A stretch of 64,000 nt of DNA, from NCBI GenBank assembly GCA_964414145.1, contig CAYPVH010000006.1, positions 16,357 through 80,356 of the forward strand, in the 5' to 3' direction. The notes below the pieces were generated by a model that saw only the letters and a program-made list of their open reading frames with translations, was not told the origin of the DNA and made no database searches. The position numbers and the translations under genes are program-made. Each line of letters opens with the position of its first letter. The first letter of the stretch is position 1. Shown piece after piece: positions 4,330 through 25,389 of the stretch. The DNA is from an uncultured Gammaproteobacteria bacterium (GTDB taxonomy: Bacteria > Patescibacteriota > Microgenomatia > UBA1406).

Positions 4330-5490
4330 ATGACAAACACAAAAGTACAAGTCTTAAAAACAGAAAGGGAGGATGGATATAGAATCTTTACTCTTTCACT
4401 TGAGGATGAATCCAACAACAAACGTGAATATCAGATTTACGTCTTTGATAATGACTTCCCCATACAGGAGTCTGACACAACAGAAACAATGCTTCAAGAT
4501 TTTGCCAAGAAACAAATGACTGACTGGTTAAGGGATTCGGATGGAAAATTTCCTAAAGACAAATATCGTGTTCTTGTTAACGGTGGAAGAATCACAACTG
4601 ACAATGTGAACAGCTTTCTGTCAGTACAGAAAAAAACTGCAGATCTTACTCGTACCAACGTAACCATTTCCGCACCTCTATTTGAATGGGCCAAGGCTAA
4701 GGCTAGGAAAGAAAATACTAGCTTTAGTGACTTAGTCTCCAGGGGTTTGCTAACACTTAAAGATTCGGATAAAGAAATTAATGCATGGTACAAAGCTCAA
4801 CGAGTTTTTTTCAATGAAAAACTAGGTGATTTAGGTTCCTTTGAGGTTTTTCATTACCTACCCAACAATTATGAGGTTTTTGACACCGATAAGCTAAAGG
4901 ATGTTCTCCAGAAGGTAGAAGTAAGGCGAACTGGTTGGCCAATTGGAGCGTATCTAACGGGGAGCAATCAGCGACCGTATCCACAACAGGATGGTATTAG
5001 GGCTGAGTATAACCCTACAGATTATCTAAAAGTAGATTACTGGTACGCCAAGAATAAGGGTGAGTTTTATTTTGCTCGGAATTTAGAATCTGACTCTGGA
5101 AATGGCAAAGACAAGCCCAGAACTAGTCTTTATTTTGACACCTTGATTTGGAGAATAGCTGAATCCCTTGAACATTGTCTTGCCTATTATAAAGGGCTAG
5201 AAATAGATGAAGGGGAAAGAGTTAAGATAAAACTATCTCTTGATGGACTCACTGGCAGATCGCTCAGCGCTTGGAATCAAATGAGAGCGTTAACACTAAG
5301 GCACTATGTTTGTGAGTCGGATAGGGCAACGTGGGAAATGGAGATCACGCTCGATGAGTTAGAAAAACAGTTAGATGAGTTGATTTATGACGCTACAAGA
5401 AAACTTTTGGTGATGTTTAACTTTTTTGTTCCCAACAAAGAAGTGGTACAAGATATTCTTAAAAGAGAGTACAGAAAGTCGAATCTTTAA
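4330..5490 (+). CDS. Hypothetical protein with ribbon-helix-helix-like segment (island gene)
   Basis: 386 aa; segment VTISAPLFEWAKAKARKENTSFSDLVSRGL resembles a CopG/RHH antitoxin-type motif; large uncharacterised C-terminal domain. Confidence 0.5.
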   Translation: MTNTKVQVLKTEREDGYRIFTLSLEDESNNKREYQIYVFDNDFPIQESDTTETMLQDFAKKQMTDWLRDSDGKFPKDKYRVLVNGGRITTDNVNSFLSVQKKTADLTRTNVTISAPLFEWAKAKARKENTSFSDLVSRGLLTLKDSDKEINAWYKAQRVFFNEKLGDLGSFEVFHYLPNNYEVFDTDKLKDVLQKVEVRRTGWPIGAYLTGSNQRPYPQQDGIRAEYNPTDYLKVDYWYAKNKGEFYFARNLESDSGNGKDKPRTSLYFDTLIWRIAESLEHCLAYYKGLEIDEGERVKIKLSLDGLTGRSLSAWNQMRALTLRHYVCESDRATWEMEITLDELEKQLDELIYDATRKLLVMFNFFVPNKEVVQDILKREYRKSNL

Positions 5491-5491
5491 T

Positions 5492-6322
5492 ATGAAGGCT
5501 AAAAATTATATAACTGCTAAAGCACGTCAAGATATTAGAAAACTAGCAGAATTAATTGGCGAAATCATTCCTGCCACAAGTCTTGGTAATTTTTGTTTCA
5601 AAAAAATCGCTAACCAACGGACATCTACAAAAAAATTCTGGGTTAATGGAAATAATAAGAAAGAACAAATCAGTGTTTTTTTGACCAACTTATACCGTTA
5701 CCACCCAAACCTTATATATAAAATTATTAGAGAGAGTCTTCCAAAAGGAATTGAAAGACGTTATAAAATGGGTAATCCTATTCTCCAAAGTGAAATTGGA
5801 GAACTAAATCAAGCACTTCTAGCACTAAACATAAATCTTTCTAAAGAAATCCATGATCTAAATTTACCAACAGAAAAACCTAAGATTGTTCCACCTCCTC
5901 CTGAATTCCAAAATATAATGAGGAAAATGTCACTTGATGTCAAATTAGAAGAAAATGTAAAACAACTCTACCTAGATGGACATATAAATGAGTCTGTAAG
6001 AAAGTCTCTAGAAATTTACGAAAAAGAAGTACAGGACTTAAGTAGACTAGAATTAATTGGTAAGGATTTAATGATTCGAGCCTTCAATGAAAATAGTCCA
6101 ATTATCTTAGTAGCAGATGTATCTACCAGAAGAGGAAAATCATTTCAAGAAGGTTTTAGATACATCTCGGCAGGGATAATGCTACATTGGCGAAACAAAT
6201 TCAGTCATGGAAATGAGGATCAAATTTCATACATTGATGGTTTTCAATTAATTATGGCAATAAATCAATTAATGTGTGAAATTGAAGTCAACAAAGCTTT
6301 CAAAAATAAAAACTCCTATTAG
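5492..6322 (+). CDS. Abi_C/TIGR02391-like C-terminal domain protein (possible abortive-infection component)
   Basis: ATG at 5492 lies 2 nt after the upstream stop. C-terminal HWRNKFSHG block resembles the conserved RN..HG signature of the Abi C-terminal family. The ORF track extends the frame to 5426, but 5492 is the likely start. Confidence 0.4.
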   Translation: MKAKNYITAKARQDIRKLAELIGEIIPATSLGNFCFKKIANQRTSTKKFWVNGNNKKEQISVFLTNLYRYHPNLIYKIIRESLPKGIERRYKMGNPILQSEIGELNQALLALNINLSKEIHDLNLPTEKPKIVPPPPEFQNIMRKMSLDVKLEENVKQLYLDGHINESVRKSLEIYEKEVQDLSRLELIGKDLMIRAFNENSPIILVADVSTRRGKSFQEGFRYISAGIMLHWRNKFSHGNEDQISYIDGFQLIMAINQLMCEIEVNKAFKNKNSY

Positions 6323-6438: not shown

Positions 6439-7455
6439 TCAATTCTCAATATTTAATAAAGGCTGGAACCATTTAACCAACTTATCTAATTCCTTTATAT
6501 TACTAGGTATTGAGTTATCTGCTATAAATTTTGCCTTATAATACTGATTCCAATAAGCTTCGCCTGATCGTCGTGGATGCTTACCCAAAAAAGAATCATA
6601 AAAAGATTCGTGAATTTCATAATGATGAGTGTGAATAAAATCAGACCATGTTTTACGGAGTTTGTTTTGATCGGAGCCTGGGCGGCAAATTATTTCTGTT
6701 TGTTCCATATTTCTTTCTACAATATCTCCCCATCCTTCTTTTAATAGCTTTATTGCTTCAATATCTGTCTTTGGCGCACTATAGCCAAAAATGCTAACCA
6801 TAAAACATCTTTTCAAAAAACACCGTATTGCATCCCATTCTCGTTGAATAAAATCCCCATCATTATAGTTCTTATTTTCTATTGGATATAACAGTTGTGA
6901 AGGCAAAAAGTAATTTCCACATTTTTTACATTTCCTCCCTATTACACCTCTCTTTTTATCTTTGGAACAATAGCCAACTTGTACATTTCCATGTAAAAAA
7001 AATAATTTAGGGAATTTGGTCACTCCATGTGAAGCTAATCTTATTCTAGATTGCATCAAAAACGGATCCCAATTAAAAGTCGCAATAACATCTTTTTCTC
7101 TCAATGAAAGAGTAATAACATCATATAAATTTGCTTCTCTAGGTAATTTAAGATTATTAAAATATTCTGAAATTTTTTCGTTTATTATCTCTACTTCTTT
7201 AGTATTTCCATTTTTAAATAATTTAGAATAAGCATCTTCAAAATTAACCTCAGACAAGGCTTGTAATTCTGTTGGAAATAAACTTTGAAGTGATAATTGT
7301 TTTGCTAAATCTTTCATCAAAGGAACCGGTTGCCCGTTCTCGTCACCATTATGCAATGCGGCATTATTAACTCCAGCACCAAGAATTAATACATGCGGTT
7401 TACGCATAAATATTTTTCCAATTTCTTCTTTTGCTGATACATTTAGATTATCCAT
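6439..7455 (-). CDS. SIR2-like (SIR2_2/DHS-like NAD-binding) domain protein, defense-type
   Basis: three motifs in order: VLILGAGVN (GAG), IATFNWDPFL (TxNYD-like), FFLHGNV (LHG). Start overlaps the upstream gene end (operon). Confidence 0.6.
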   Translation of the reverse strand: MDNLNVSAKEEIGKIFMRKPHVLILGAGVNNAALHNGDENGQPVPLMKDLAKQLSLQSLFPTELQALSEVNFEDAYSKLFKNGNTKEVEIINEKISEYFNNLKLPREANLYDVITLSLREKDVIATFNWDPFLMQSRIRLASHGVTKFPKLFFLHGNVQVGYCSKDKKRGVIGRKCKKCGNYFLPSQLLYPIENKNYNDGDFIQREWDAIRCFLKRCFMVSIFGYSAPKTDIEAIKLLKEGWGDIVERNMEQTEIICRPGSDQNKLRKTWSDFIHTHHYEIHESFYDSFLGKHPRRSGEAYWNQYYKAKFIADNSIPSNIKELDKLVKWFQPLLNIEN

Positions 7456-8530
7456 TCTTTTTTATTAAATGCATTAAATCATCTTCTTGTTCATATGCTT
7501 TCAATCTACCTGTCAATATACCTAATCTGTAATTAACTCCATCACTCATTAGTCTCCAATTCGTATCTTTAAGAGCTGAAATAACCGTTTTCTTCAGTAT
7601 GTTTTGACTATCTCTTTCATGTCTGTCTTCCTTAGTATTGTTTACTGAAAAATCTACTATTACATACTTACCAATATTTGGTTTGCCAAATTGTAAGTCT
7701 TGATAATAATTCTTTGCAAGAGCATTAATTAATGCTCTTTTAACTTGGATAAGTGTAAGTTTCTTAAGTTTTTTTGCTTTAATGTACCTGGGGTCTTTTC
7801 TTTTTTTTTCTAGTCTTTTTTGTTCATTTCTAAAACTCTTTAATCTTTCTATTGTATATACAAATTCATCACCTTCTTTTTTACTTAAGCAAAATTTATC
7901 TCGGTACTTATTAAGTAATTCTTTGTCTTGTTTTTCTTTATCGGCTTGTTCTTTTTCCCATTTCTTGTGATCATCAATCTCTTCTATAATGTAACTACAT
8001 TGAGAACATTCATCCTTCCAAATAGTTTTAGTTTTTAATGTTCTAATAGATTGCTTTAGTACTGAATTACAGCTTGGGCACTTTGGTTTCTCATATATTA
8101 TCCTTTTTCCTAAGTGATTAATAATTATTCCTTCTTTACAATGAGGACATTTTAGAGCAAAGTGAACTTCAAGATTCTCACCAACACTTCCGTGAAGATT
8201 TCTAGCTACATATTCCATCTTTGTTTCACATTTTTCACAGAATCTAGGTGGTGGAGTCGAGCAGTCGTATAGTTCTTGTTTTACCCTATCTCTCTCCATC
8301 CATTCATTAATTATCTTTTCTTTATTACAATATCTCTCTCCTGTATATGCCCAAATTGCAAGATTAAGTACTCTCTCAAGATCCTTTTTATTTTTGTCTA
8401 AAAAATGTTTAAGTGACTTGTATTTTGGATACTTAGAATTCTTAACTTCGTCTATTAAATGAAGAACATACTGGATAGTTCCAAGATCATAGAGTTCCTC
8501 GTAATAACTTCTATCTTTTAAGTATTGCAT
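7448..8530 (-). CDS. Multi-CxxC zinc-ribbon protein with lysine-rich coiled-coil, partner of the SIR2-like gene
   Basis: CEKCETK..CPHCKEG..CPSCNS..CSQCS motifs; translationally coupled on both sides (8530 and 7448-7455 overlaps). Confidence 0.5.
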   Translation of the reverse strand: MQYLKDRSYYEELYDLGTIQYVLHLIDEVKNSKYPKYKSLKHFLDKNKKDLERVLNLAIWAYTGERYCNKEKIINEWMERDRVKQELYDCSTPPPRFCEKCETKMEYVARNLHGSVGENLEVHFALKCPHCKEGIIINHLGKRIIYEKPKCPSCNSVLKQSIRTLKTKTIWKDECSQCSYIIEEIDDHKKWEKEQADKEKQDKELLNKYRDKFCLSKKEGDEFVYTIERLKSFRNEQKRLEKKRKDPRYIKAKKLKKLTLIQVKRALINALAKNYYQDLQFGKPNIGKYVIVDFSVNNTKEDRHERDSQNILKKTVISALKDTNWRLMSDGVNYRLGILTGRLKAYEQEDDLMHLIKKNG

Positions 8531-9123
8531 TAATTTCTTAATTCATAACGATATACTGTACTGTTATCCTTGTCTTCGCTATAAACCTTGATTGAATATT
8601 TAGCTCTGTTTTTGGGATAGAAATGAAAATTCATTTCGTTAAAGAAAATTATTCGGTAGCGATAATTCCCCTTCTCTAGAACCTTATCTAGCTTGATTGA
8701 TAACTCGGAGTTGGAGAAACTACCCTGAGCTTTTGCAAAGTAACGTTTGTCGAGAGTTAGATAGTTATTTTTATATCGCGCCTCACTAATTTTGTAGAAG
8801 TGCAGAATGTAGACATATCTATCTTTGTATTTGCCGAATGTATAAGTACAATCTCTGAATTTGTTTTCTGCCCTATACTTCTCCCCATACCTAATATTTG
8901 AGAGCATTGTAACCCCAAATCCCACAATTTTGGTTTCTAACGAACGCTTTAGGTAATCCTCTCTAGTAACTAATTTTGCCTCAGGGTTCCAAGCTTTGGC
9001 AGAGCTACTAAGAATACTTGAACAGGAAGCTTTGAGTTCGTTGAATTTTCTCGTATCAAAGAACAGAGCTTTTCGAATACGATTCTCAGGCGATAACTTC
9101 TTCCACTGAGTAATGCTTTTCAT
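8530..9123 (-). CDS. Hypothetical protein, first gene of the SIR2-like operon
   Basis: 197 aa ORF whose stop overlaps the start of the next gene (8530). Confidence 0.45.
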   Translation of the reverse strand: MKSITQWKKLSPENRIRKALFFDTRKFNELKASCSSILSSSAKAWNPEAKLVTREDYLKRSLETKIVGFGVTMLSNIRYGEKYRAENKFRDCTYTFGKYKDRYVYILHFYKISEARYKNNYLTLDKRYFAKAQGSFSNSELSIKLDKVLEKGNYRYRIIFFNEMNFHFYPKNRAKYSIKVYSEDKDNSTVYRYELRN

Positions 9124-9970
9124 AATTTTATTATATACTCATACTATGAGATTAAAGGTAATATTGGTACTTGTTCTAGTAATAGCTTCAATTGTTGTCA
9201 TTACTCACAAGGAAAACTGTACAAATGCTTTTTCTGTTCAGGATTATACGGAAAGCAAGAAGGGCTCAATAAAGATTTGCGATAAAGCAGTTTATTACAA
9301 CGATTCTAAAATTGTTGATGATAAGGAAAACAGCGAGCTTTTTCACTACAAACTATCCAACAAGATAGAGGACACTAAACAATATGTAAGAATCTTTGAG
9401 GACAATAAGCAAACATATATAGGTATAATCTCAGTAATTGATTATGCATCTTGGTTCAAGTCTACTATTAGCGTATATAAAAAAGAACCAGTCGGATTTA
9501 AGGAAATTTTTAAACTGCCCTTTAAAGATGTACCCGGGAGATTCGCTAAGATTAGTTTTGTTAACTATAACTTGTTTGATTATCACAATATTGAAGTTTC
9601 TGGAGATGTTGGATACTTGGGTTGTTACGGATGTCTTATTAATTGGGTAGACTATTACCGTTGGGATAGCAAAAAACAAAACTTTGTTCTTGTTAACAAT
9701 CAACATAAGCGCGAATTTGAGGATTTACTAAAAAGATTTGAAGAACAAAATCAAAGTGCTTGTTTGGAAACTTCAGGAACTCCGGGAGTAATCTCCGAGT
9801 TATACCCTGCTCGTAAAGATAGTAAGGGTTTTTGTGATGATAGAGCCATTGTTCCTTATATAACTACTAAGCAGGCAAAAACGCTACTACAGGCAATAAG
9901 GGCTGCAAAGTTAATCATTAAGAATGATAATATTTCCAGCAAAGAAGTAAAAAATATTGTAATAGAATAG
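9113..9970 (+). CDS. Hypothetical membrane-anchored/secreted protein
   Basis: N-terminal hydrophobic helix VILVLVLVIASIVVI, Cys-rich body. Confidence 0.45.
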   Translation: MLFIILLYTHTMRLKVILVLVLVIASIVVITHKENCTNAFSVQDYTESKKGSIKICDKAVYYNDSKIVDDKENSELFHYKLSNKIEDTKQYVRIFEDNKQTYIGIISVIDYASWFKSTISVYKKEPVGFKEIFKLPFKDVPGRFAKISFVNYNLFDYHNIEVSGDVGYLGCYGCLINWVDYYRWDSKKQNFVLVNNQHKREFEDLLKRFEEQNQSACLETSGTPGVISELYPARKDSKGFCDDRAIVPYITTKQAKTLLQAIRAAKLIIKNDNISSKEVKNIVIE

Positions 9971-9981
9971 GCTATTTACTT

Positions 9982-10557
9982 TTATCTACTAGGAAAGTAC
10001 TCATTCCAAGGCAAAAGCAAGTCTTCCACATTATGTAACGATTCATCTCGATAGTATTTTCTACTCATTGTTTTAAGAACAAGTTCTGTACATTTTTCAG
10101 ACGCAATCTTAACTCGCTCTGTGAAAAGTTTATTTTCATCAACTGGATCGCTCTTTTTTTCGTTCTGAATATGGATTCTATTTCTTATTTTTCGAAGACT
10201 ATCTAATACCGAATAAAATTTAGTATCCTTTGCATCAAAGAAATCGTTACTTTTGGCGTGTTGGATATATTTATCAAGCTTGTCGATTTCTTTATTCTTT
10301 ATATACTCTATTACTATTTTAGGTACGTTTATTACTCCCTCAAAAGTATGATATTTGATTCTATGATAAAAATCATGTAGAACAGCCTCGTTTATAGACA
10401 TTAACCATATTACAATTGGTTTAATCAAGAGCATTTTAGTTTTTGCATTATCGGAATTATACAAATCATAAAAATGATTTAGAATTTCCAAATTATAAAC
10501 AACATTGTCACCCGTTTTAAAGCTCCCAAAAAAATTAGACTTAATTATGAAAGTCAT
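9982..10557 (-). CDS. Hypothetical protein, last gene of the helicase/MTase operon
   Basis: 191 aa ORF overlapping the MTase stop by 4 nt. Confidence 0.45.
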   Translation of the reverse strand: MTFIIKSNFFGSFKTGDNVVYNLEILNHFYDLYNSDNAKTKMLLIKPIVIWLMSINEAVLHDFYHRIKYHTFEGVINVPKIVIEYIKNKEIDKLDKYIQHAKSNDFFDAKDTKFYSVLDSLRKIRNRIHIQNEKKSDPVDENKLFTERVKIASEKCTELVLKTMSRKYYRDESLHNVEDLLLPWNEYFPSR

Positions 10558-13500
10558 ACTTTTTGGCTTTCGACAATTTTAATTTCTTCTTCAGTTAACT
10601 CATACAATTTATAAACCATTTGGTTGATCTTTTTTTCTAAGTTCACTTGCTCAATAGGTGGATTCTGAGGATCGTAAGAATGTTGTTTTGTTATTTCTAA
10701 AATCTGATCAACTAATTTGACAATTTTATTTTGCTTTGTTTCATCAACAAGTTTTATAGGAGTCTCCTCAAGAGGTTTTCCATAAAGTTCAAGTGAGTTA
10801 CCTTTTTTCTTTCCTCTGTAATAAAACCATAAAAAGTAAAGTTTGCTATTAAGTAGAGCCAATATATATTTAAGTTTGAAACTCTCTCTAAACTCTTCTC
10901 TTAAAGTTGTGATCATTATATCTGATTGTTCATAGTTCTTATCATTCTCGTAAGCAAATATGTTTTTCTTAGCCCTTCTAGAATTAGTTATTTTTTCTTC
11001 TTCGAAATACCACCTATCTCTTGGCCAATGAAGTGAATACCAAGGAATCCTACCGTTTTTACATTCTCGTTTCTCTTGTAATATTTTTTTATATTTTATT
11101 AGGTGCTCTTTCAAATTTGGAAAATCATCCAAGTTATGATCTTTAGTTAAATAGATTATAAAATAGTCTTCTTGTTTTAATATGTAGTATCTAAAGATAT
11201 GAGAATTTTTATAAAATGGATGAACAATTTTTCTCTCTCCATCATTCAAATTAAGATTTTTTAATTCATCTTTATTCAATACGAATATACCCTCACCTTT
11301 AACGCCATTAATTTTGTATTTCTGCATGTGTTTAGTAGTTAAAACATCGGCGCCCGACACAATACCTTGCTTTATATGACAAATATTCCCTAATAGGTAG
11401 CCTACATCTTCTATCTTATTAAGAATCTCATTTGATTTACTTTTTGAAACTCCAATTCCCTCAATTCTTAAATAGTTTTCCACTCCATCATATAAAAATT
11501 TTTGACCAACCTCATAGTAGTTTGTTTTTTTATCGTTTCCAAATAGAATGTTGTTTAATATATTTTCATCTGCTTGTCCCACTTGTTTTGTCAGAATATT
11601 TTTTGACTTCAATAAACGGTCATTATTTTTACTAAAAATAGTTATCATGTTATGTTGACCTAGCGCTGATTTAAATATTTTCAACTCATTAAAATTAATT
11701 AGATTTAGAATAACTGCTCTTTTTTTCAAATCCTCTCTCAATTTTTTAGCACCATATGCTGTGACATAATAATTGGTTGTAATAAAAGCTACATAACTAT
11801 TTTCTTTTGCAATGTTTAAGGCTAAGTGAAAAAAGAAGTAAAACAAATCCATTTTTCCCTGATAAAAGTCATTAAGGTTTCCTTTTGCAATTTCTCTAAA
11901 TATTTCTTTATTTCCCTTTTCTCCAACATAGGGTGGATTTCCAATAACTATATCGAAACCACCTTTTTCTTTAAACACATCACTAAATTCAAGTTTCCAA
12001 ATGAAAAATGGCTTAATATTTTTATGTCTAAGCTTAATTAAATTGTTAAGCTCTTTAATCTTCTTCTGCTCTTTAAATGATTCCTCAATGATTTCCCATT
12101 TTAAGTTATCAATATATTCTTTTAATGTTTGCTTCTTTGTCTTTTGTGATTCATCTACATATTGACTTATCTTATTTTGTAAATCTTCAAGTTTAATTTC
12201 TGAATTTGATTTACCAAAACCAAAAGGCAACTGCTCGGCTTTAAACTCTTTTGATTTCTTAAATATTCCCTCATCAAACAACTTAATTCCTTCATATTCT
12301 GAAATCAGACTATTACCTTGCATTATTTTGTGATCAAGGTTGGGAAGTGGACTTGGAGTAGACTCCTCTACAATAAGAGTTAGCCACAAACGTAGTTTGG
12401 CAATTTCAACTGCTCCTGGGTCTATATCAACTCCATGAATTGAATTAGAAATCGCATGTTTTTTAAGTTGATAGTCGGTTAGTCTTTTATCTAAATAAAT
12501 GTTTAGGATTTTTCTGGCTCTGACAATTTCATTAATCATCCCCAATGGAAAAGCTCCTGAGCCGACAGCTGGATCAGCAACCTTAATGTTCATTAGAAGC
12601 TCATCCAACTCATTTGCCTTTTTTATAATAGATTCAGCCAATAAGAGCTCATATTTGCCAGTATACTTATAACCTCGTTTTTGCTTTTCTCTAATCTTCT
12701 TTAAGGCAACACTATCATTTTCAATAATTCTATCGCCCGTATAAATAAAGCTCTCAATGTCTTTTCTTTCAATCCCTTCAGTTTCAGACTCTAAATAATT
12801 GATCAGACACTCTTGGCACATATAATGCACAATTTCTCTTGGGGTATAAAAGGCACCTTTGCTTTTTCTATCTCTTACTTGGAGTAAATTTTCAAAAACC
12901 TTACCAAGCATTTCTGGATCAACAGCAACTTCTTTTTCTAAAGGTTCATTTTCATTAACAGTGAAGTTATACCTATCAAAAACATCTAAGATTCCGTTAC
13001 CCTTATCTCCATTTTTTGTGGGAATATTATTGGAGAACACTTCATCTGGGATGTCGATGTTGGTAGTTTCCCATGCATAGTCATTCATTGGCTCAAACAA
13101 ACCACCATTTAAAAATGGCATCTTACAATTATTGAGTTTTGGGTAAAATGAATTCTTACCTCTATCCTGAGCTAGTGCTTCATAAAACAATGGCTCTAAT
13201 ACATCATTGAAAAAGTTTTTTCCATATTTTGATCTTCTCTCAAAAAGCTCTCTTAAAAAGTTTTTAGGTCCATCTCCCCAAGACTTATTTGGTGCAACTC
13301 CAAACCAACCTTTCTTTTGAAGAAAATACAAGAAGATAATCTGACCCATTGTCTTCTTTGCAAAATCAACAGTATCGATTTCCTTAGAACTAAACTCATC
13401 TTTAACACTTTCATCATTCAAAATGATTTTCTCTAAATTCTCTTTGAAAACTAAGAAGAGTTCTTTGTATTTTTCAAAGAACTCATTAGTTACGACTTCA

Positions 13501-14060
13501 ATGTCAAACGCAGATTCAAATTCTTCAAGGTTTGGTTTTTGATTGCTTACCAGTAAATTAACAAATCTGCTCTGTGCAGTATGTGTGCCTTCATTTTTCC
13601 CGACCAAAAAAGACCATCTTTTTGCTGGTGTAATTTCTTCTTTAGTAGTAATCTTATTATTTTTAACTTCTAGAGAATGCTCAAGTTTTATAAGTGAGAA
13701 ACGCCAATCATTTTTACTCTGAGGGATAAACGCAACTAGTGCGGCTAGTTTATTATTTGATTTTAAGTAGTCTGCAACGAAATTTCTTTGGGCTGTTCTT
13801 GCTTTATCCAGTGATTTATCATTTGTTAAATTTACTTCTAAAATATCTATCTTTTGTGACTTATTATCCTCAAAATAACCAAGCACTCTATAGTTATCAA
13901 TAAATGACTTGAAAGAATCTTTTACATACGTGTTGTCAACATTTTTATTGACTCTTGTAAAATCTTTTAGCAAATTGCTAATAAAGAGTTGAAATTTACC
14001 ATCAGTAAACTCTGTACTAAAAACTTCTTTTATTATTCTTTTTGCATCACTTTGTTTCAT
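10554..14060 (-). CDS. PglX/Type IIG/Type ISP-like N6-adenine DNA methyltransferase (Eco57I family, gamma-class) with C-terminal target-recognition region
   Basis: FYTPREIVHYM, VADPAVGSGAFP (motif I), GVDIDPGAVEIAKLRLWL, and catalytic NPPY (VIGNPPYVGEKG). N-terminal LDKARTAQRNFVADYL..ALVAF..DWRFSLIKLE resembles PglX/Type IIL N-termini. 1168 aa. Confidence 0.8.
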   Translation of the reverse strand: MKQSDAKRIIKEVFSTEFTDGKFQLFISNLLKDFTRVNKNVDNTYVKDSFKSFIDNYRVLGYFEDNKSQKIDILEVNLTNDKSLDKARTAQRNFVADYLKSNNKLAALVAFIPQSKNDWRFSLIKLEHSLEVKNNKITTKEEITPAKRWSFLVGKNEGTHTAQSRFVNLLVSNQKPNLEEFESAFDIEVVTNEFFEKYKELFLVFKENLEKIILNDESVKDEFSSKEIDTVDFAKKTMGQIIFLYFLQKKGWFGVAPNKSWGDGPKNFLRELFERRSKYGKNFFNDVLEPLFYEALAQDRGKNSFYPKLNNCKMPFLNGGLFEPMNDYAWETTNIDIPDEVFSNNIPTKNGDKGNGILDVFDRYNFTVNENEPLEKEVAVDPEMLGKVFENLLQVRDRKSKGAFYTPREIVHYMCQECLINYLESETEGIERKDIESFIYTGDRIIENDSVALKKIREKQKRGYKYTGKYELLLAESIIKKANELDELLMNIKVADPAVGSGAFPLGMINEIVRARKILNIYLDKRLTDYQLKKHAISNSIHGVDIDPGAVEIAKLRLWLTLIVEESTPSPLPNLDHKIMQGNSLISEYEGIKLFDEGIFKKSKEFKAEQLPFGFGKSNSEIKLEDLQNKISQYVDESQKTKKQTLKEYIDNLKWEIIEESFKEQKKIKELNNLIKLRHKNIKPFFIWKLEFSDVFKEKGGFDIVIGNPPYVGEKGNKEIFREIAKGNLNDFYQGKMDLFYFFFHLALNIAKENSYVAFITTNYYVTAYGAKKLREDLKKRAVILNLINFNELKIFKSALGQHNMITIFSKNNDRLLKSKNILTKQVGQADENILNNILFGNDKKTNYYEVGQKFLYDGVENYLRIEGIGVSKSKSNEILNKIEDVGYLLGNICHIKQGIVSGADVLTTKHMQKYKINGVKGEGIFVLNKDELKNLNLNDGERKIVHPFYKNSHIFRYYILKQEDYFIIYLTKDHNLDDFPNLKEHLIKYKKILQEKRECKNGRIPWYSLHWPRDRWYFEEEKITNSRRAKKNIFAYENDKNYEQSDIMITTLREEFRESFKLKYILALLNSKLYFLWFYYRGKKKGNSLELYGKPLEETPIKLVDETKQNKIVKLVDQILEITKQHSYDPQNPPIEQVNLEKKINQMVYKLYELTEEEIKIVESQKV

Positions 14061-14064
14061 AAAA

Positions 14065-17000
14065 TTAGTTACCTATAAAATATTCTGAGAGAATAATTTC
14101 CTTTTTTGCAGAAGCGTTCATATTTATTCCATTATCTGAATCTTCTAAAAATTCTGATGGAAGAGTAGTTTTTAAAATCCCCAAAATCTTGATTGGATTA
14201 TTAATAATCTCAATATTTTGAGATAGCTCTTGATAAATTTTCTGAGTTACTTTTTTAGGGATGCCTCCGTTATTAAGTTCAATGATAACTCTTCGCACAT
14301 ATTCTTCGTCATCTTCAGTAAACTTTTCATAATTTTTTACTTGCTTAGCATTTAAGATTTTAAAAAGCCTAGCGGCATTATCTCTACTTCCTCTTTTGGT
14401 TGAAAATTCATTCTCTTCATAATCTTCTACCTGATTTAACATCGAAAGATTCTTTTCAAGTAATTGGTAGAATAACTCATCAATTGTCATTTTCTTTTCG
14501 CTAACATTGGCATGCAATGTCTTTGCTGCTTCAATAAAGTCTATTTCAAGCGCATCAGTAGAAAAAGAGCTTTCGACAATAAAGAATTTCTGAATTTTTC
14601 CTTTTCTAAAGTATGTTAAAAGCTCTGTTTTATAATTCTGTGACTTTCTTGCAGTGCGAGCTTTCTTGGGGAGTCTTTTTATTTTTGCAAACAGTTTGGG
14701 ATCATTATCTCTGATATCTCTGATTTCTCGTAAGTATCCCAAGTAGCTTTTTTCATTTTGATCTTCTCCCTCAATCATTTCTTTTGAAAGTATTCGACTA
14801 AATAAACTATGTCCTTCTGGAACTTCATCGTCTGTAAGAAGCTTTGCATCAGCACCCAGTAAAGTAATAAATGCTTGAATTTTTGCTTCGGCTAGTTCTT
14901 TTAGTTTAATTTGCTCGTTGGACTGCTCAGTAGGGAATAAAGTATAGGTATAAATTTCTTTATGCTTGGTATCGACTCTATTTATACGGCCCACTCTTTG
15001 CATAATCTTGGTGGGATTCCAAGGAATATCGTAATTAATTACAACATTGGCTTGATGAAGGTTAGCACCTTCAGATAAAACGTCAGTAGTTATTAAAACT
15101 TTATAGTCATTTTTTATGACTCTGGAATTTGCATCAAAATTTTCCATCACAATTTCTCTCTCTGCTAGAGAACTACCACCTGAAAAATAAATGATTTGGT
15201 CTGGAAAAATATCTTGCAGGTTTTTTAGTAGGTATTCTGCCGTCTCTTTTGATTCAGTAAAAATAATAGACTTACCACTTTTTACTGGTTCTTCTAAAGA
15301 TAGTTTTTCTTTAAAAGCTAGAATCTTGGGATCCCTAGAGATATTAGCCCAAAGTTTCTTTATATTTCTCAAAATTTCTAAATCTTTTTGTAAATTCGTA
15401 ATATATTTTTCAGTGAAATCCTTAGACTTAAATTTTTCAGCTTTATTATTTTCTACTAATTTGTCGATAGATTCTAAATTTCCTTCATCTAAATAGTCAA
15501 ATATTTTTTGTATATGGCTTCTACTGACATATACACTTCCATTTTCATATGTTTTAATAAATTTTTCGTAGGAAGAAATAAATCGATCAATTGTTTTATT
15601 AAAAGCGTAAAAGCTACTTTCCAGTCTTTTTATCAACAGCATTTTCATGAATTTCATCATGTTTTTCTGTTTCTGTTTTTCTTGGTTAGTAATTCCTTTG
15701 TAGTATAAAAGAGGAGTGTAGCGTGAGTACTTAAAATCATTAGTAATTATTTTTAAAGTTTCAAAAAAAACAGCGTCTTCTTCTTTGCTAAATTCGTAAA
15801 ATATTGGTGCAGGATCAGCAATTTTAGGAAAACTCATTTTTCGATTTTGCAGATCATCACCATAATATTTAATAATTTCTGTTCGGGTTCTTCTTACCAT
15901 TAAATATTTAAGAACTTTTTCCCTAATCAACCTAGAATTTTCTTTTGTTACATCAATGTATCTTTGCTTATCTCTCTTTCGATCTAGATCCTTTAATTTA
16001 TTATCCAAAACCTTAAAAAATCCTTCTAAATTCGGCAAGTTAGGAATGGTACTTTGCTTTGATCTTTGAAAGAGTTTTATTTGAGACAGTAGGTCTTTTG
16101 GTGAGTTATTATATGGAGTAGCTGTAACAAGAATAACCTTTTTCCCTCGGCATATTTGAGCAAGCTTTGCATAGGTTTCAGTTTCTTCTGTGCGGAATCG
16201 ATGTGATTCATCAACTAAAACTATATTATATTCTTTATGTAAATTTTTATCGATAATTTTATCCAGCATTCCAATTGATTCACATCTATAGTCTTTAGAT
16301 CTAAAACCAAAGTTTTTAAAAGAATTTTTCCAGCTACCTTCGTTATTTTCATCAATCAAGTGCGGAGGTGCTAATACCAAAATTCTACCTGCTAGCTCTT
16401 GGCAAAGCATAGTACCCATATATGTTTTGCCAAGACCAACAACATCAGACAAAAATACACCACCATACTCGTCAACAATTTTCTTTGCGTTGATAACAGC
16501 ATGATCTTGATATTTCAGTTCTTTGAAATTATCTGGTCTGTAATTGTGACTTAGATTTTCTTCTTCATTAATTTCTTCTCTGAAGTATTCATAGAGAAAT
16601 TTCAGATAGAGTTCGTATGGTGTAATGTCTTCTCTAATCCAAGTATCCTTTTCAATTGTCTCAATATATTTTTCACAAACATCAATGCCATGTTCCCAAA
16701 GTTCATTAAATTTATTCAATGCAAATTTGTAGTCTGAAGGGTTTTTAAGCTCAACATTAAATTCTAAGTTATCTATCAAACCACTTTGTGTAAAATTACT
16801 GGAACCAGTAATGACTCTCCCAAGATCTCGATCATCTTCATTAAAGGTCATTATGTAGAGTTTTGAATGAATTTTTTCTTCAGGGTAAGCTCTTATTTCA
16901 AGCTTTCCAGACTTTGCCCATTCAAGAAACTTATGTACTCCTGTCTCAACTTCATGGTTGTTTTCACTCTTATCCATCTCATTTTTAATACTCTCACCAA

Positions 17001-17250
17001 TATCATCACCAATTTCCTTGTAGGATTTTGAGACTTGAATAAGATCGTAAGTTTGCTTATTGGTACTGATTCCGATTAAGATTCTAATCTTTTCAGTTTT
17101 TTCGAGCTGAGGGTATATAGCGTAAAAACCACTGGTATAGAAATAACCAACTAAAATATCAAATAGACGAGTATCTTTGACCAAAACATTAAATCTACTT
17201 TTTAGGTTTTCACCATTCTCATTAGTAATAAATGTTAAGTCTGTACTCAT
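14065..17250 (-). CDS. PLD-family nuclease domain fused to SF2 (DEAH/SNF2-like) helicase
   Basis: N-terminal HKD motif HSKLYIM..GSSNFTQSGL; helicase motifs GLGKTYMG (I), VLVDESHRFR (II), LVTATPYNN (III), QRVGRINR (VI); 1061 aa; 5 nt upstream of the MTase gene. Confidence 0.8.
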   Translation of the reverse strand: MSTDLTFITNENGENLKSRFNVLVKDTRLFDILVGYFYTSGFYAIYPQLEKTEKIRILIGISTNKQTYDLIQVSKSYKEIGDDIGESIKNEMDKSENNHEVETGVHKFLEWAKSGKLEIRAYPEEKIHSKLYIMTFNEDDRDLGRVITGSSNFTQSGLIDNLEFNVELKNPSDYKFALNKFNELWEHGIDVCEKYIETIEKDTWIREDITPYELYLKFLYEYFREEINEEENLSHNYRPDNFKELKYQDHAVINAKKIVDEYGGVFLSDVVGLGKTYMGTMLCQELAGRILVLAPPHLIDENNEGSWKNSFKNFGFRSKDYRCESIGMLDKIIDKNLHKEYNIVLVDESHRFRTEETETYAKLAQICRGKKVILVTATPYNNSPKDLLSQIKLFQRSKQSTIPNLPNLEGFFKVLDNKLKDLDRKRDKQRYIDVTKENSRLIREKVLKYLMVRRTRTEIIKYYGDDLQNRKMSFPKIADPAPIFYEFSKEEDAVFFETLKIITNDFKYSRYTPLLYYKGITNQEKQKQKNMMKFMKMLLIKRLESSFYAFNKTIDRFISSYEKFIKTYENGSVYVSRSHIQKIFDYLDEGNLESIDKLVENNKAEKFKSKDFTEKYITNLQKDLEILRNIKKLWANISRDPKILAFKEKLSLEEPVKSGKSIIFTESKETAEYLLKNLQDIFPDQIIYFSGGSSLAEREIVMENFDANSRVIKNDYKVLITTDVLSEGANLHQANVVINYDIPWNPTKIMQRVGRINRVDTKHKEIYTYTLFPTEQSNEQIKLKELAEAKIQAFITLLGADAKLLTDDEVPEGHSLFSRILSKEMIEGEDQNEKSYLGYLREIRDIRDNDPKLFAKIKRLPKKARTARKSQNYKTELLTYFRKGKIQKFFIVESSFSTDALEIDFIEAAKTLHANVSEKKMTIDELFYQLLEKNLSMLNQVEDYEENEFSTKRGSRDNAARLFKILNAKQVKNYEKFTEDDEEYVRRVIIELNNGGIPKKVTQKIYQELSQNIEIINNPIKILGILKTTLPSEFLEDSDNGINMNASAKKEIILSEYFIGN

Positions 17251-17520
17251 ATTTACATCCTTTTCTATATAGGTTATTCTTAACTAAATTCAATTGAACT
17301 CACATTCAATTATAAAACAAATGCTTTTACTTTTATATTATATGTGTGTGATTGCTCTGGGCCCAAAGCTTTTCACATAAATCTTTCTTTGAATTCAAAC
17401 TTAATAATCACATAAATTTTATTAACCTATAGGACTATTATAACTTAGTTTTAACAAAAAATACTCATTGGGAGAGAAAAAAAATAATTAAAAAAACACT
17501 ATAATATTAATAATGTGATG

Positions 17521-17540
17521 AATTTGGTGTTCACCAAATT
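17521..17540. promoter_or_regulatory. Perfect 9-bp-arm palindrome (candidate operator) in a divergent promoter region
   Basis: AATTTGGTGttCACCAAATT, between the divergently transcribed helicase operon and the ParB/MTase gene; tandem aatgaaaaatgaaaaatgaatgaggtgtgaggtgtag follows. Confidence 0.4.
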
Positions 17541-17693
17541 TAAGCGGTTATTGAAAACCACTGAATCACATCTCTTCAAATAATGAAAAATGAAAAATGA
17601 ATGAGGTGTGAGGTGTAGTTTTTAGTAGCCGCTTTTTTTGTTGCTGCTAAAACTTAGAAAGTAAGTGAGTTATTAACAGTTACTAGTTTAAAT

Positions 17694-19022
17694 ATGGAAA
17701 ACAAAACGAAACTTAATGTCGAATATGTCGACATAAACAAACTAAAAGCAGCGGAATATAATCCACGAAGATGGGAAAAAGCTGCAGTTACAAGTTTAAC
17801 TAAAAGCATTCAGAAACATGGCTTAGTAGACCCTGTTATAGCAAACAGCTTTCAGGAAAGATATGGAGTAGTTATTGGCGGACACTTTCGCTTAAAGGTT
17901 GCAAAGGACTTAGGTTACAAACAAATTCCAGTTGTCTGGCTAAATATTTCAGAGATTGAAAAGGAGAAAGATTTAAATCTGAGACTAAATAAGGCAGTTG
18001 GAGATTGGGACTGGGATTTATTGAAAAGCTTTGATGAGAATCTGCTTTCAGACATTGGTTTCTCCTCTGAGGAGCTCGATAAAATCTTTGATTTTGATAA
18101 CCCTGAGTTGTTTGATCTTAATAAAGAATTAGAAAAGCTGAATATAAAGGAAGTTAATACTAAAAAGGGAGATATTTATCAGCTGGGAGAGTCAAGATTA
18201 ATGTGTGGTGACAGTACAGTTGAAAGTGATGTTTTGAAGCTGATGAATGGAGAGAAGGCAGATCTGTGCCTAACAGACCCGCCATATATACTAGACTACC
18301 TTAATGGCAAGCAAAGACATGGGAAACCAACCGTTGGTTTTGGGGCAAAGAAAAACCGAAGGTATCTGGAGACGGATATTTTGCCTCCTGACTTTACTGA
18401 GAAATGGATGGCTAATATTAGCAAAGTACAAAATAAAGACTTTTCCATAATAGTATATGAGAACTGGAAAAACATAAGAACTATATGGGGTGAAATGGAG
18501 AAATACTGGAAGGTAAGAAATATGATTGTCTGGCATTTGCCAAATAGAGTTCAAGGCTTCTCAGCTAAAAGCAAGTTTTTCAATAAACACGATATTGCAA
18601 TGGTTGGAACAAGCATTAACTCAATTGATTTAAATAATGAGCAGGAAGAAGAGCTTCTTCAAAACGAATATGAGACAGCTCTCTTTGCAATATCAGGCAA
18701 GGCATACTGGGAACCATATAAAAAGGGGAAAAAACATTGCCCAACAGACTTTATTGAATACAAAGCAAGCGACGAAAAATCCTCAGGGCAAGGAGTGATC
18801 TTCGGTACAAAACCAATAGATATATTAGTTCCATATATTAAGGTATTAAGTAGAAGGGGCGATCTATTAATTGAACCTTTCTCCGGAAGCGGCAGTACTT
18901 TAATTGCAGCAACAAAGTTAAAAAGAAGGTGTTATGGTATGGAAAAGTCTCCTGTGTATTGTGAAGTAATTATTAAACGTTTTGAAAAGTTTACCGGACT
19001 GAGAGCTAAAAAAATAACATGA
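17694..19022 (+). CDS. ParB-like N-terminal nuclease domain fused to N6/N4 DNA methyltransferase (phage/plasmid-type orphan MTase)
   Basis: ParB-N block VIGGHFRLKVAKDLGYKQIPVVWL; MTase motif IV LCLTDPPYI; C-terminal SAM-binding IEPFSGSGSTLIAA typical of PF01555-type methylases. Confidence 0.75.
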   Translation: MENKTKLNVEYVDINKLKAAEYNPRRWEKAAVTSLTKSIQKHGLVDPVIANSFQERYGVVIGGHFRLKVAKDLGYKQIPVVWLNISEIEKEKDLNLRLNKAVGDWDWDLLKSFDENLLSDIGFSSEELDKIFDFDNPELFDLNKELEKLNIKEVNTKKGDIYQLGESRLMCGDSTVESDVLKLMNGEKADLCLTDPPYILDYLNGKQRHGKPTVGFGAKKNRRYLETDILPPDFTEKWMANISKVQNKDFSIIVYENWKNIRTIWGEMEKYWKVRNMIVWHLPNRVQGFSAKSKFFNKHDIAMVGTSINSIDLNNEQEEELLQNEYETALFAISGKAYWEPYKKGKKHCPTDFIEYKASDEKSSGQGVIFGTKPIDILVPYIKVLSRRGDLLIEPFSGSGSTLIAATKLKRRCYGMEKSPVYCEVIIKRFEKFTGLRAKKIT

Positions 19023-19534
19023 AAAGCATAGAGAAAAGAATCAGTAGAAACAAAAGAGAGCTTCTAAAACATTTAGAGACTATGCCAATTGTTCAGATTG
19101 CCTGCAAGAAGGAAGGTGTTGGCCGATCAACTTACTATCGTTGGCGAAAAGAAGATCCAGTGTTTTGTAGAGAAGCAGACAAAGCACTTTCGCAGGGTAA
19201 AGCACTGATGAATGATTTAGCAGAAAGTAAGTTATTAACTGGAGTAAAAGAGCAGAATATGACTGCAATAATATTTTGGTTGAAGAATAATCACCCTAAT
19301 TATATGAGTTCTTTTAACAAACTAAATAAGGATCAAATGGAAACTCTACTAGACATATTTGTCAATGCATCAACAATTAATAATTACAACAGTTTAAAAA
19401 AGATATTTAACCTAGAGATACCAGTTAAAATAATACGTCCAGTATTAAGCCTGTTAAAAATCATTGTCAGTAACAAAAGAGAGAATAATAACTACAGAAA
19501 ATTAAAATTATTGTCTGAACTCAAAGGAAAATGA
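19019..19534 (+). CDS. Phage-like HTH protein (terminase-small-subunit-like or regulator)
   Basis: GVGRSTYYRWRKEDPVF..AIIFWLKNNHP pattern common in phage small terminase/HTH proteins; start overlaps the upstream stop. Confidence 0.35.
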   Translation: MKSIEKRISRNKRELLKHLETMPIVQIACKKEGVGRSTYYRWRKEDPVFCREADKALSQGKALMNDLAESKLLTGVKEQNMTAIIFWLKNNHPNYMSSFNKLNKDQMETLLDIFVNASTINNYNSLKKIFNLEIPVKIIRPVLSLLKIIVSNKRENNNYRKLKLLSELKGK

Positions 19535-22056: not shown

Positions 22057-23367
22057 ATGATAAACGGAAACAATAACATAAATTACTGTCTTTATGCCAG
22101 AAAGTCATCTGAATCAGATGAAAGACAAGCGATGAGTATAGATGGACAGCTAAAAGAAATGTACTATGTTGCCAAAAAAGAGAAACTAAATATATCAGAT
22201 GTTATTACAGAAAGTCACTCTGCGAAAGAGTCAGGTGAAAGACCAGGCTTTAATCAGTTAATAACAAAAATCACAAAAGGAGATTTTAATGCAGTCCTTA
22301 CTTGGGCACCTGACCGATTAAGCAGAAATGCGGGTGACTTAGGAAGAATAGTGGACCTAATGGATCAACAAAAGTTAGTTCAGATAAGAACTCACTCCCA
22401 ATCATTTAGTAATAATCCTAATGAAAAGTTCCTGCTTATGATTCTCTGTTCTCAAGCCAAACTAGAGAATGATAATAGGGGAATAAATGTTAAACGTGGA
22501 CTCAGAAGTAAATGCGAAGCAGGTATCCGTCCGGGTGTAGCTCCTGTTGGATATATAAATGTACATAAAGAAAATAGAATAGCAACTATTGATATTGATA
22601 AAGAAAGAGCAATGATTATTAAGGAAATGTTTAAGAAAGTTGCAAATCAAGGATATTCCGGACGAATGGTAAAGAAATGGTTAGATAATCTTGGTTTTAG
22701 AACAAAGGGTGGATACAGAATTGCTTTAAGCAAAGTATATACAATACTAAAGAATCCCTTTTACTATGGAGAATTCAAATATGGCGGTAAATGGTATCAA
22801 GGAATTCATGAGCCACTAATTACAAGAAGCCTGTTTGACAAAGTACAGATAGAACTTGAAATAACCCCAAGACAATGGAATAAACAGACATTTCCCTTCA
22901 AAAAACTATGTAAATGTGGCAGCTGTGGTGGTAGTGTAACAGCAGAGATTAAGTACAGAAGAACAAAGAATGGAAAGATTAATACTCATATATATTATCA
23001 CTGCAATAGAATTAAAAAGTATGATTGTAAAGAACCGTATATTAGAGAGGAAGACCTTATTAAACAACTAATATCTTATTTACCTAAACTTAAACTAGAT
23101 ATTAATTACTTATACAGAGAATTTGAAGTAGAAATAAAAAGACTGCAACATTTAAAAGCAACAGTTATTGATAAATATAATCCCTACAATATTCAACTCA
23201 CTCCACATAATACGAGTAGTAACAAAATGAATCTATCTAAAACTGATGTAGTGAAAGACTATGTTTTACACGTTTTAACATATGGTACACCTGAGGAGAG
23301 ATTGAAAATATTGAAAGGAGTGAAAACTAGGTTTTTGCTCTCAAAGAGAAGTCTTAAGACTATCTAA
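22057..23367 (+). CDS. Large serine recombinase (resolvase/invertase-type catalytic domain plus recombinase/Zn-ribbon extension)
   Basis: N-terminal CLYARKSSESDERQAMSIDGQ matches the YAR(V/K)S..Q catalytic-serine motif; 436 aa; Cys cluster CKCGSCGG..YHCNR in the C-terminal region. Confidence 0.75.
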   Translation: MINGNNNINYCLYARKSSESDERQAMSIDGQLKEMYYVAKKEKLNISDVITESHSAKESGERPGFNQLITKITKGDFNAVLTWAPDRLSRNAGDLGRIVDLMDQQKLVQIRTHSQSFSNNPNEKFLLMILCSQAKLENDNRGINVKRGLRSKCEAGIRPGVAPVGYINVHKENRIATIDIDKERAMIIKEMFKKVANQGYSGRMVKKWLDNLGFRTKGGYRIALSKVYTILKNPFYYGEFKYGGKWYQGIHEPLITRSLFDKVQIELEITPRQWNKQTFPFKKLCKCGSCGGSVTAEIKYRRTKNGKINTHIYYHCNRIKKYDCKEPYIREEDLIKQLISYLPKLKLDINYLYREFEVEIKRLQHLKATVIDKYNPYNIQLTPHNTSSNKMNLSKTDVVKDYVLHVLTYGTPEERLKILKGVKTRFLLSKRSLKTI

Positions 23368-25300: not shown

Positions 25301-25303
25301 TGC

Positions 25304-25389
25304 GGAGAGGGTGGGATTCGAACCCACGTTCGGCGTTAACCGAAACACGCTTTCGAGGCGTGCGCAATCGTCCGCTCTGCCACCTCTCC
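25304..25389 (-). tRNA. tRNA-Ser (anticodon CGA)
   Basis: minus-strand read GGAGAGG-TG-GCAGAGCGGAC..-CACGC-CTCGAAA-GCGTG-long variable arm TTTCGGTTAACGCCGAAC-GTGGG-TTCGAAT-CCCAC-CCTCTCC-G. 7-bp acceptor stem, canonical T-loop, anticodon loop CU-CGA-AA; CCA not encoded. Confidence 0.85.

Follow-up and report, generated by a model that had tools for sequence, protein, structure and literature searches.

A PLD nuclease-helicase gene coupled to an Eco57I-family methyltransferase gene in an uncultured bacterium: a candidate two-subunit ATP-dependent restriction-modification system

The subject of this analysis is a 64,000-nt stretch (hereafter the window) of contig CAYPVH010000006.1, obtained from an uncultured bacterium, and in particular three adjacent open reading frames (ORFs) on its minus strand, designated genes A, B and C. 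A encodes a predicted phospholipase D (PLD) nuclease fused to a superfamily 2 (SF2) ATPase, B a predicted N6-adenine methyltransferase (MTase) with a target-recognition domain (TRD), and C a small protein assigned to the HEPN fold. The features of the locus, numbered from the first position of the window, are listed below (aa, amino acids).

Gene A: 14065..17250, minus strand; 1061 aa, comprising a PLD nuclease with a single HKD motif, an SF2/Snf2-like ATPase and a C-terminal region of ~260 aa whose fold is unassigned.
PLD/HKD domain of A (residues 45-185): 16696..17118, minus strand; predicted catalytic residues H128, K130 and G149-S-S-N152, from the Pfam match and motif reading.
SF2 ATPase core of A (residues 244-780): 14911..16521, minus strand; motifs GLGKT, DESH, TATP and QRVGRINR.
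Gene B: 10554..14060, minus strand; 1168 aa, comprising a conserved N-terminal module, an Eco57I-family gamma-class N6-adenine MTase and a variable TRD.
N-terminal module of B (residues 1-426): 12783..14060, minus strand; alpha/beta domain (~30-155), then a helical domain.
MTase catalytic core of B (residues ~400-800): 11661..12863, minus strand; motifs FYTPREIV, DPAVGSGAF and NPPY.
Target-recognition region of B (residues ~800-1135): 10656..11663, minus strand; apparently exchanged independently of the rest of the system.
Gene C: 9982..10557, minus strand; 191 aa, a predicted HEPN-fold accessory, co-transcribed.
Intergenic region between A and a divergent ParB-MTase gene: 17251..17693, unstranded; 443 bp, presumed to hold the promoter.

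The three ORFs are co-directional and tightly packed, with the coordinates, strand and lengths that the original prediction, made from the sequence alone, had given. The stop codon of A (TAA) is followed by 4 nt (tttt) and the ATG of B, and the stop codon of B overlaps the start codon of C as ATGA. Every motif previously quoted for A and B was located in the translations. A, B and C appear to be genuine genes and not chance ORFs, since homologues exist for each of them (in 72 loci for A, 3222 for the N-terminus of B and 21 for C). A scan for promoters and terminators gave results at chance level (37 promoters found, 36.5 expected), and a search of positions 9900-17750 for phase-variable tracts, inversion repeats and shufflon-like structures detected chance-level short repeats only.

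Protein A carries the residues HSK (128-130) and GSSN (149-152) close to its N-terminus, followed by the motifs GLGKT (272-276), DESH (347-350), TATP (376-379) and QRVGRINR (751-758). The corresponding Pfam matches were PLDc_2 (5e-9) and RE_NgoFVII (9e-8; residues 45-185), ResIII (3e-9; residues 244-380) and Helicase_C (1e-22; residues 655-759). These results bear out the view that A is an N-terminal HKD-type PLD nuclease fused to a full SF2 motor, and that the PLD nuclease, with its HxK and GSSN motifs, takes the place of the usual Mrr/PD-(D/E)xK domain. Conservation across 57 full-length homologues is 95% or more for H128, K130, TGSSN, GLGKT, DE.H, ATP.NN and QR.GR..R. The N-terminal 240 aa of A match 155 clusters formed at 50% identity (E<=1e-30), and the full-length proteins among the best 150 clusters listed for this query are mostly 1023-1144 aa long. 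Each chain of A carries one HKD motif. Because the established PLD nucleases BfiI, SauUSI and MtsD pair theirs in a dimeric active site (bioRxiv 10.64898/2026.09.23.753747), A would have to dimerise to form a single active site.

In profile searches A comes closest to the defence Snf2 helicases DrmD, BrxH and HmaA and to the MANTIS-type PLD helicase. The top NCBIfam model was that of the MANTIS-type "phospholipase D-like anti-phage protein" (NF042964; 147.9 bits versus a cut-off of 1100), DrmD (NF038317) scored 139.8 bits versus a cut-off of 610, and the PADLOC matches were "HKD+Snf2" (3e-50) and DrmD (1.5e-36). The PADLOC label "C3a139 HKD+Snf2" was considered as a system assignment for A and rejected, as it denotes merely a cluster seen four times beside type III CRISPR loci (PMC6546367). 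Among the names examined, NCBI uses "helicase-related protein" for one protein that clusters with A at 90% identity and for most of the relatives of A on plasmids. A PDB search with A gave 88 matches, of which the best 60 were DEAD-box and Snf2 proteins of generic type; when only the PLD domain was used as the query, no PDB sequence was matched. Residues 783-1061 had no SRA, DUF3427 or other credible Pfam match, even at E<=10.

Protein B contains the motifs FYTPREIV (404-411), DPAVGSGAF (496-504; S-adenosylmethionine motif) and NPPY (708-711), and was matched by the Pfam models Eco57I (1.4e-36), MmeI_Mtase (4e-12) and TaqI_C (1e-7). In PADLOC it matched REase_MTase_IIG (PDLC03596; 1.6e-192), a full-length, REBASE-derived Type IIG profile, as well as DrmMI (5e-30), and it scored 82.7 bits against the PglX model NF033452 (cut-off 500). 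When all PDB chains were searched with B using phmmer, only CamA (1e-33, residues 700-1135), PglX and BseCI were recovered. In 44 full-length homologues, conservation of at least 95% is seen for YTPR, GSGAF and NPPY; no residue between positions 800 and 1168 reaches this level. The Eco57I, NPPY and TaqI_C evidence confirms the earlier description of B as a gamma-class MTase with a TRD; what that description overlooked is an extra conserved N-terminal module of 426 aa, which co-diverges with A.

This module (residues 1-426) is the best-conserved part of the protein, with identities of 51-72% among the best 120 of its 3222 homologues. An AlphaFold2 model (pLDDT 77) predicts an alpha/beta domain (~30-155) and then a helical domain, which resembles the N-termini of HsdM, PglX, MmeI and DrdV; a Foldseek search of the model against PDB gave no match at E<=0.001, and no restriction endonuclease fold is claimed for residues 30-155. 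The conserved features of the N-terminus are AR..QR (87-92) and WR.S (119-122). It has no nuclease match in Pfam, MmeI_N included, even at E<=10, and within the first 85 positions no acidic or Lys residue is conserved in at least 95% of the 44 homologues. Position 65 is Asp in 35 of them, position 72 is G, D, I or A, and position 74, where the Lys of a (D/E)xK motif would be expected, is Leu in 28 and another hydrophobic residue in the remainder. Since there is neither a conserved D/E/K triad nor a nuclease match in Pfam, B very probably lacks a canonical nuclease, the PLD domain of A being the sole recognisable nuclease in the pair.

A homologue scan with A, with one genome taken per species, yielded 72 loci, in which full-length A matches showed 41-96% identity (with one outlier of 29%). 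The hosts include Clostridia, Bacilli, Bdellovibrionales, Planctomycetota and candidate phyla radiation (CPR) bacteria, as well as Methanoculleus (Methanomicrobia), Methanobrevibacter and Methanosphaera (both Methanobacteria). A homologue of B lies directly 3' of A in approximately 57 of the 72 loci, in both bacteria and archaea, with a gap of -22 to +18 nt in most cases and an inserted gene in a few. Conversely, all three homologues chosen by the N-terminus of B alone (on contigs of 0.8-2.4 Mb) are located after a gene encoding a PLD+SNF2 protein of 1063-1076 aa, directly in two cases and with one 71-aa gene in between at the third (locus L076). All-against-all clustering of the flanking ORFs revealed no third family common to the 72 loci: the other clusters were antisense noise or limited to near-identical relatives, and the genes 3' of B differ among loci (DUF2779/Cas4-like, DUF4145, Maf, unknowns). 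As B follows A in most loci, the reverse test agrees and no further family is conserved, the unit consists of two genes, A and B. The three-gene module first proposed is therefore reduced to two, the 191-aa ORF (gene C) being absent from all 72 loci, including those in which A is 96% identical.

No PglZ, BrxC, DUF1998, DrmA, DUF499 or DUF3780 was detected when the neighbouring genes within the 64-kb window were analysed using Pfam, PADLOC and PHROGs, and DrmA and DrmB (DUF1998) are absent from both the window and all of the related loci. No other ORF of the window has the size expected of PglZ or BrxC. The original prediction, which had reported neither PglZ/BrxC nor a DUF1998 DrmB partner, thus held on the wider scale as well. 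More remote pairs were found on Bacteroidales replicons, where a gene for a protein ~29-30% identical to A (named as helicase- or SNF2-related) is followed by one for an "N-6 DNA methylase" of ~1100 aa.

In three loci from metagenomic genomes the PLD-SNF2 gene is full-length and B is damaged: it is split into ORFs of 433 and 594 aa in L076 (8001-11206), interrupted by IS21, IS110 and DDE_3 transposases in L077 (8001-17377), and split into three ORFs, possibly by frameshifts, in L078 (8001-11616). The MTase gene thus seems to decay often while the motor-nuclease gene stays intact. The loss of B beside an intact A in L077 and L078 would fit a restriction activity that requires B, in which case the loss of B would be harmless. 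It was also observed that A copies of 93-96% identity (L001-L004, L008, L059) occur in metagenome-assembled genomes (MAGs) binned to taxa that are not related to one another (Pseudomonadales, Syntrophomonadaceae and Pseudobdellovibrionaceae), which may reflect either recent transfer of the element or mis-binned contigs.

Comparison of B with its counterparts in L001, L002 and L008, where A is 93-96% identical, revealed 84-100% identity over residues 1-750 and 20-48% over residues 800-1100. The best TRD matches (45-49%) occur in loci with an A of only 42-44% identity, and TRD identity shows no significant correlation with A identity (rho 0.17), while the identities of A and of residues 1-426 of B co-vary approximately 1:1 (96/96, 72/67, 64/65, 52/49 and 44/45; Spearman rho 0.71, p 1e-7). 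The cluster formed at 90% identity contains 28 members for A and one for B. B is thus a mosaic protein, whose TRD is uncorrelated with A while its N-terminus tracks A. Such a pattern marks a specificity subunit that is diversified by exchange and yet bound to a partner which is itself conserved.

Gene C gave no match in Pfam (even at E<=10), PADLOC, NCBIfam or PHROG, and 21 homologues of its product, at 42-77% identity, were found. Its earlier description as unknown holds in as far as Pfam is concerned, but the fold could be assigned as the HEPN helical fold. R125, N126, R127 and H129 (R125-N-R-x-H129) are invariant and R122 nearly so; of the two possible readings of the HEPN Rx4-6H motif, R122-x6-H129 fits and R125-x3-H129 is one residue short. 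A homologue of C (197 aa) was also observed in L075 (2913-8594), where it overlaps another two-gene pair at the 3' end. The genes of that pair encode an 858-aa HSDR_N+ResIII+SWI2_SNF2 protein and an 840-aa N6_Mtase/Eco57I/Methylase_S fusion, and this locus is flanked by an SLFN/AlbA_2 gene upstream and a HARE-HTH gene downstream. Because C is absent from the 72 related loci and also stands behind an unrelated helicase/MTase pair, we regard it as a rare HEPN-fold accessory and putative RNase which does not belong to the conserved module. It is similar to the stand-alone HEPN genes embedded in helicase/MTase systems, such as HEC-08 in Hma, in being a small HEPN-fold protein with conserved Arg and His, whose gene closes a helicase/MTase operon and shares its orientation. 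Independent defence activity has been demonstrated for such embedded genes (bioRxiv 10.1101/2024.01.29.577857), whereas the activity of C is predicted, its known homologues number only 21 and it matches none of the four databases.

The pair was compared with known systems, in the case of Cj0031, MtsD, LlaGI and SauUSI by description and profiles. With the Type ISP enzymes LlaGI and LlaBIII it has in common the order of nuclease, SF2 ATPase motor, gamma-class N6-adenine MTase and C-terminal TRD. Type ISP enzymes recognise an asymmetric site, methylate one strand and rely on ATP-driven communication between sites (PMC3874165). However, they are single polypeptides, whereas here two ORFs are present, with the same split in ~57 related loci; their nuclease is of the Mrr-type PD-(D/E)xK class and not a metal-independent PLD/HKD domain, and they lack a counterpart of the extra N-terminal module of B. 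Since no Type ISP chain was among the PDB matches of B, the likeness appears to be one of architecture and logic and not of ancestry. The earlier suggestion of a LlaGI-like enzyme split over two genes is therefore upheld for domain order but not for homology.

SauUSI (Type IV) and CglI/NgoAVII (ATP-dependent Type II) likewise couple a PLD nuclease with an SF2 helicase-like ATPase. SauUSI carries its own reader of modified DNA and attacks methylated DNA, whereas no recognisable reader domain was found in A; CglI recognises DNA through its nuclease subunit and has a separate MTase, a C5 enzyme, in contrast to the present pair, where recognition would reside in the N6-adenine MTase-TRD protein itself. 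In its single-chain MTase-TRD design B is similar to the Type IIG/IIL enzymes (MmeI, DrdV, Eco57I, Cj0031) and to CamA; it resembles the former also in its N-terminal helical domain (MmeI, DrdV) and in TRD swapping, and its C-terminal half is homologous to CamA. The latter is an orphan MTase which methylates its asymmetric site on one strand. Type IIG enzymes carry a nuclease in the same chain, unlike B, which has no conserved nuclease residues and is apparently obligately paired with a motor-nuclease gene, implying ATP dependence.

Class 1 DISARM combines the same three activities, i.e. a PLD nuclease (DrmC-like), an Snf2 helicase (DrmD-like) and an Eco57I-family adenine MTase (DrmMI-like), but includes DrmA and DrmB, which are missing here, and the PLD and Snf2 parts are fused in A. 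BREX-related (BR) type 2 systems consist of a DUF499 ATPase, a DUF1156 MTase, an HKD-Snf2 helicase and a DUF3780 protein, the HKD motif before Snf2 being the hallmark of their helicases (Rakesh and Krishnan, PMC12839542). These systems were renamed MANTIS by Shaw et al., who described hemimethylated asymmetric sites, a preference for inverted sites and a dimeric, SauUSI-related PLD-helicase effector (bioRxiv 10.64898/2026.09.23.753747); the small MtsB protein, DUF3780 in PMC12839542, is written DUF3870 in the preprint. MANTIS/Gao_RL (MtsABCD) shares with our pair the layout of the effector (N-terminal HKD and SF2/Snf2-like ATPase) and its action downstream of a separate, target-defining adenine MTase. 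It differs in having four genes instead of two, in its DUF499 AAA+ loader (MtsA) and MtsB, neither of which occurs in the window or is conserved among the related loci, and in its DUF1156-type MTase, in place of which we observe an Eco57I/CamA-type protein with its own TRD.

Several other explanations of the locus have to be weighed against the view that A and B act together. It is unlikely that B is an autonomous Type IIG RM (restriction-modification) enzyme with an N-terminal nuclease of its own, and that A is an independent neighbour serving as an auxiliary or backup effector, or as a SauUSI-like modification-dependent enzyme. No PD-(D/E)xK triad can be traced through the 44 homologues of B (as seen at positions 72 and 74), which moreover has neither MmeI_N nor any other nuclease domain of Pfam; A and B adjoin in ~57 loci over two domains of life and co-diverge, and A, lacking a recognisable modification reader, would be self-destructive if it attacked methylated DNA beside a methylase. 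Still less probable is a reduced BREX-related (MANTIS/BR type 2) or DISARM system depending on partners encoded elsewhere (DUF499/BrxC ATPase, DrmA/DrmB), for which it may be said that the best curated matches of A are NF042964 and DrmD, that B matches the DrmMI and PglX profiles, and that A shows the hallmark order of HKD before Snf2 (PMC12839542). All the bit scores concerned lie far under their cut-offs, the MTase is of the Eco57I type with its own TRD and not of the DUF1156 type, the only other window ORFs that reach 550 aa encode two GH130 enzymes, DnaG, RecJ and UvrD, and no third family accompanies the pair in the 72 loci.

A non-defensive role, with B as an orphan-like epigenetic MTase and A as a housekeeping remodeller of the Snf2/RapA type, seems highly improbable. 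A does match RapA weakly (1.5e-14), and the closest relative with a solved structure for the C-terminal half of B, CamA, is present in PDB solely as a site-specific adenine DNA methyltransferase. The RapA score, obtained in a check proposed with the original prediction, amounts to 53 bits against a cut-off of 576, which places the helicase outside this housekeeping family, and A has a conserved PLD nuclease. Furthermore, the patchy distribution among bacteria and archaea, the presence of 96%-identical A copies in differently binned MAGs, TRD shuffling, the island setting (see below) and frequent decay are typical of mobile defence genes. As the scores against all of the curated models fall far below their cut-offs, the pair does not appear to be BREX, DISARM, MANTIS or a housekeeping remodeller.

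We therefore consider it fairly likely that A and B form a two-subunit, ATP-dependent RM enzyme, in which B is the reader and MTase and A the motor-nuclease, with a logic similar to that of Type ISP. B would be a self-sufficient sequence reader and N6-adenine MTase which marks the sites of the host; acting as a monomer, it would probably use its TRD to read a short asymmetric site and modify a single adenine on one strand, so that host sites would be hemimethylated. One-strand methylation is suggested by the homology to CamA and by the same behaviour of Type ISP, BREX and MANTIS. At an unmodified site B would recruit or license A by means of the conserved N-terminal module, whose co-divergence with A points to physical contact between the two proteins; we propose that this module is a docking or activation platform. 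A would then use ATP to translocate along the DNA or to remodel it, and two protomers of A would pair their single HKD motifs into one active site and cut. Cleavage would most likely favour inverted sites, where converging enzymes meet, a preference shared with Type ISP, Type III and MANTIS. New specificities would arise by TRD swapping in B, and C would be a separate HEPN passenger or backup effector and not a core subunit. MANTIS, in which the MTase that directs the PLD-helicase effector is likewise a separate protein, serves as a precedent (bioRxiv 10.64898/2026.09.23.753747).

Some points weigh against this two-subunit reading. The literature searched contained no experimental methylation, restriction or A-B complex for this family, and the co-divergence of A with the N-terminus of B could reflect a shared operon history instead of contact. 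According to Milman et al., those relatives of B that are homologous to Cj0031 can also be solitary, and Cj0031 itself restricts phage in vivo (PMC4889913). Even for MANTIS, the closest studied analogue, the mechanism is open, since attempts to reconstitute cleavage by MtsD in vitro did not succeed and MtsD was not detected in a complex with MtsABC (bioRxiv 10.64898/2026.09.23.753747).

A more far-reaching interpretation can be offered tentatively, and we would rate it as slightly short of probable: A and B may represent an unnamed class of two-subunit ATP-dependent restriction enzymes, widespread in bacteria and archaea, a minimal, loader-independent cousin of MANTIS and the BREX-related systems. 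In it an autonomous, Type IIG-like MTase (B), with no conserved nuclease triad in its N-terminal domain, would both recruit and license a dimeric PLD-Snf2 protein via its N-terminal module, and the slot after the MTase gene would receive exchangeable backup effectors, of which the HEPN gene is an example. In the literature searched, the pairing is mentioned only in a table entry of Milman et al. 2023, and no paper characterising it was found in a search for a named two-gene PLD-helicase/Eco57I system.

As for the genomic setting, the window is chromosomal (DnaG, RecJ and UvrD are present), and the GC content of the module is 28-32%, versus 33-40% in the flanks. The module apparently sits in a genomic island, which also holds a ParB-N6/N4 MTase gene, a terminase-small-like gene, a Hypoth_Ymh/HEPN-like gene and an uncharacterised three-gene operon. 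The edge of the island is probably marked by a large serine recombinase gene (22057-23367, plus strand; Resolvase, Recombinase and Zn_ribbon_recom domains), located ~2 kb from tRNA-Ser(CGA) (25302-25389, minus strand). Divergently from A, on the plus strand (17694-19534), lie genes for a ParB_N-N6_N4 MTase fusion (442 aa) and a terminase-small-subunit-like helix-turn-helix (HTH) protein (171 aa). The same two genes (32-49% identity of their products) are present upstream of A in L001, L003, L008 and L059, and together they resemble an orphan MTase cassette of phage origin that travels with the module.

On the other side of the module, three overlapping ORFs of 197, 360 and 338 aa (6439-9123, minus strand) had no Pfam, PADLOC or PHROGs match, except for a weak zinc-ribbon in the 360-aa protein, of which a 34%-identical homologue is encoded in the island of a relative (L001, 21956-23059); they could constitute an uncharacterised defence operon beside the RM module. 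A Hypoth_Ymh protein (1e-17), with weak PADLOC matches to PD-Lambda-3_B and an Argonaute-associated HEPN protein, is encoded at 5426-6322 (plus strand); its gene is the second HEPN-like one in the island. Outside it, at 968-1462 (minus strand), lies a gene for a 164-aa AAA_33/zeta-toxin-like kinase.

A and B are thus best read as an ATP-dependent RM enzyme, widespread in nature, that combines a PLD-Snf2 effector with a self-targeting, Type IIG-like MTase. It involves no new principle, being a recombination of known parts within an RM logic that is already understood. Current tools split the pair, assigning the MTase to "RM Type IIG" and the helicase to a DrmD-like or "helicase-related protein", and the unit goes unrecognised. 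If this reading is true, thousands of listed Type IIG "restriction enzymes" may lack a nuclease of their own, and their annotation would need revision; the swappable TRDs would be of use in engineering. The pair would also be the simplest known case of a PLD-helicase effector directed by a separate MTase. The licensing of effectors at unmethylated sites has not been reconstituted for MANTIS (bioRxiv 10.64898/2026.09.23.753747), and A and B would provide a tractable two-protein model of this step for effectors of the MANTIS, DISARM and BREX type.

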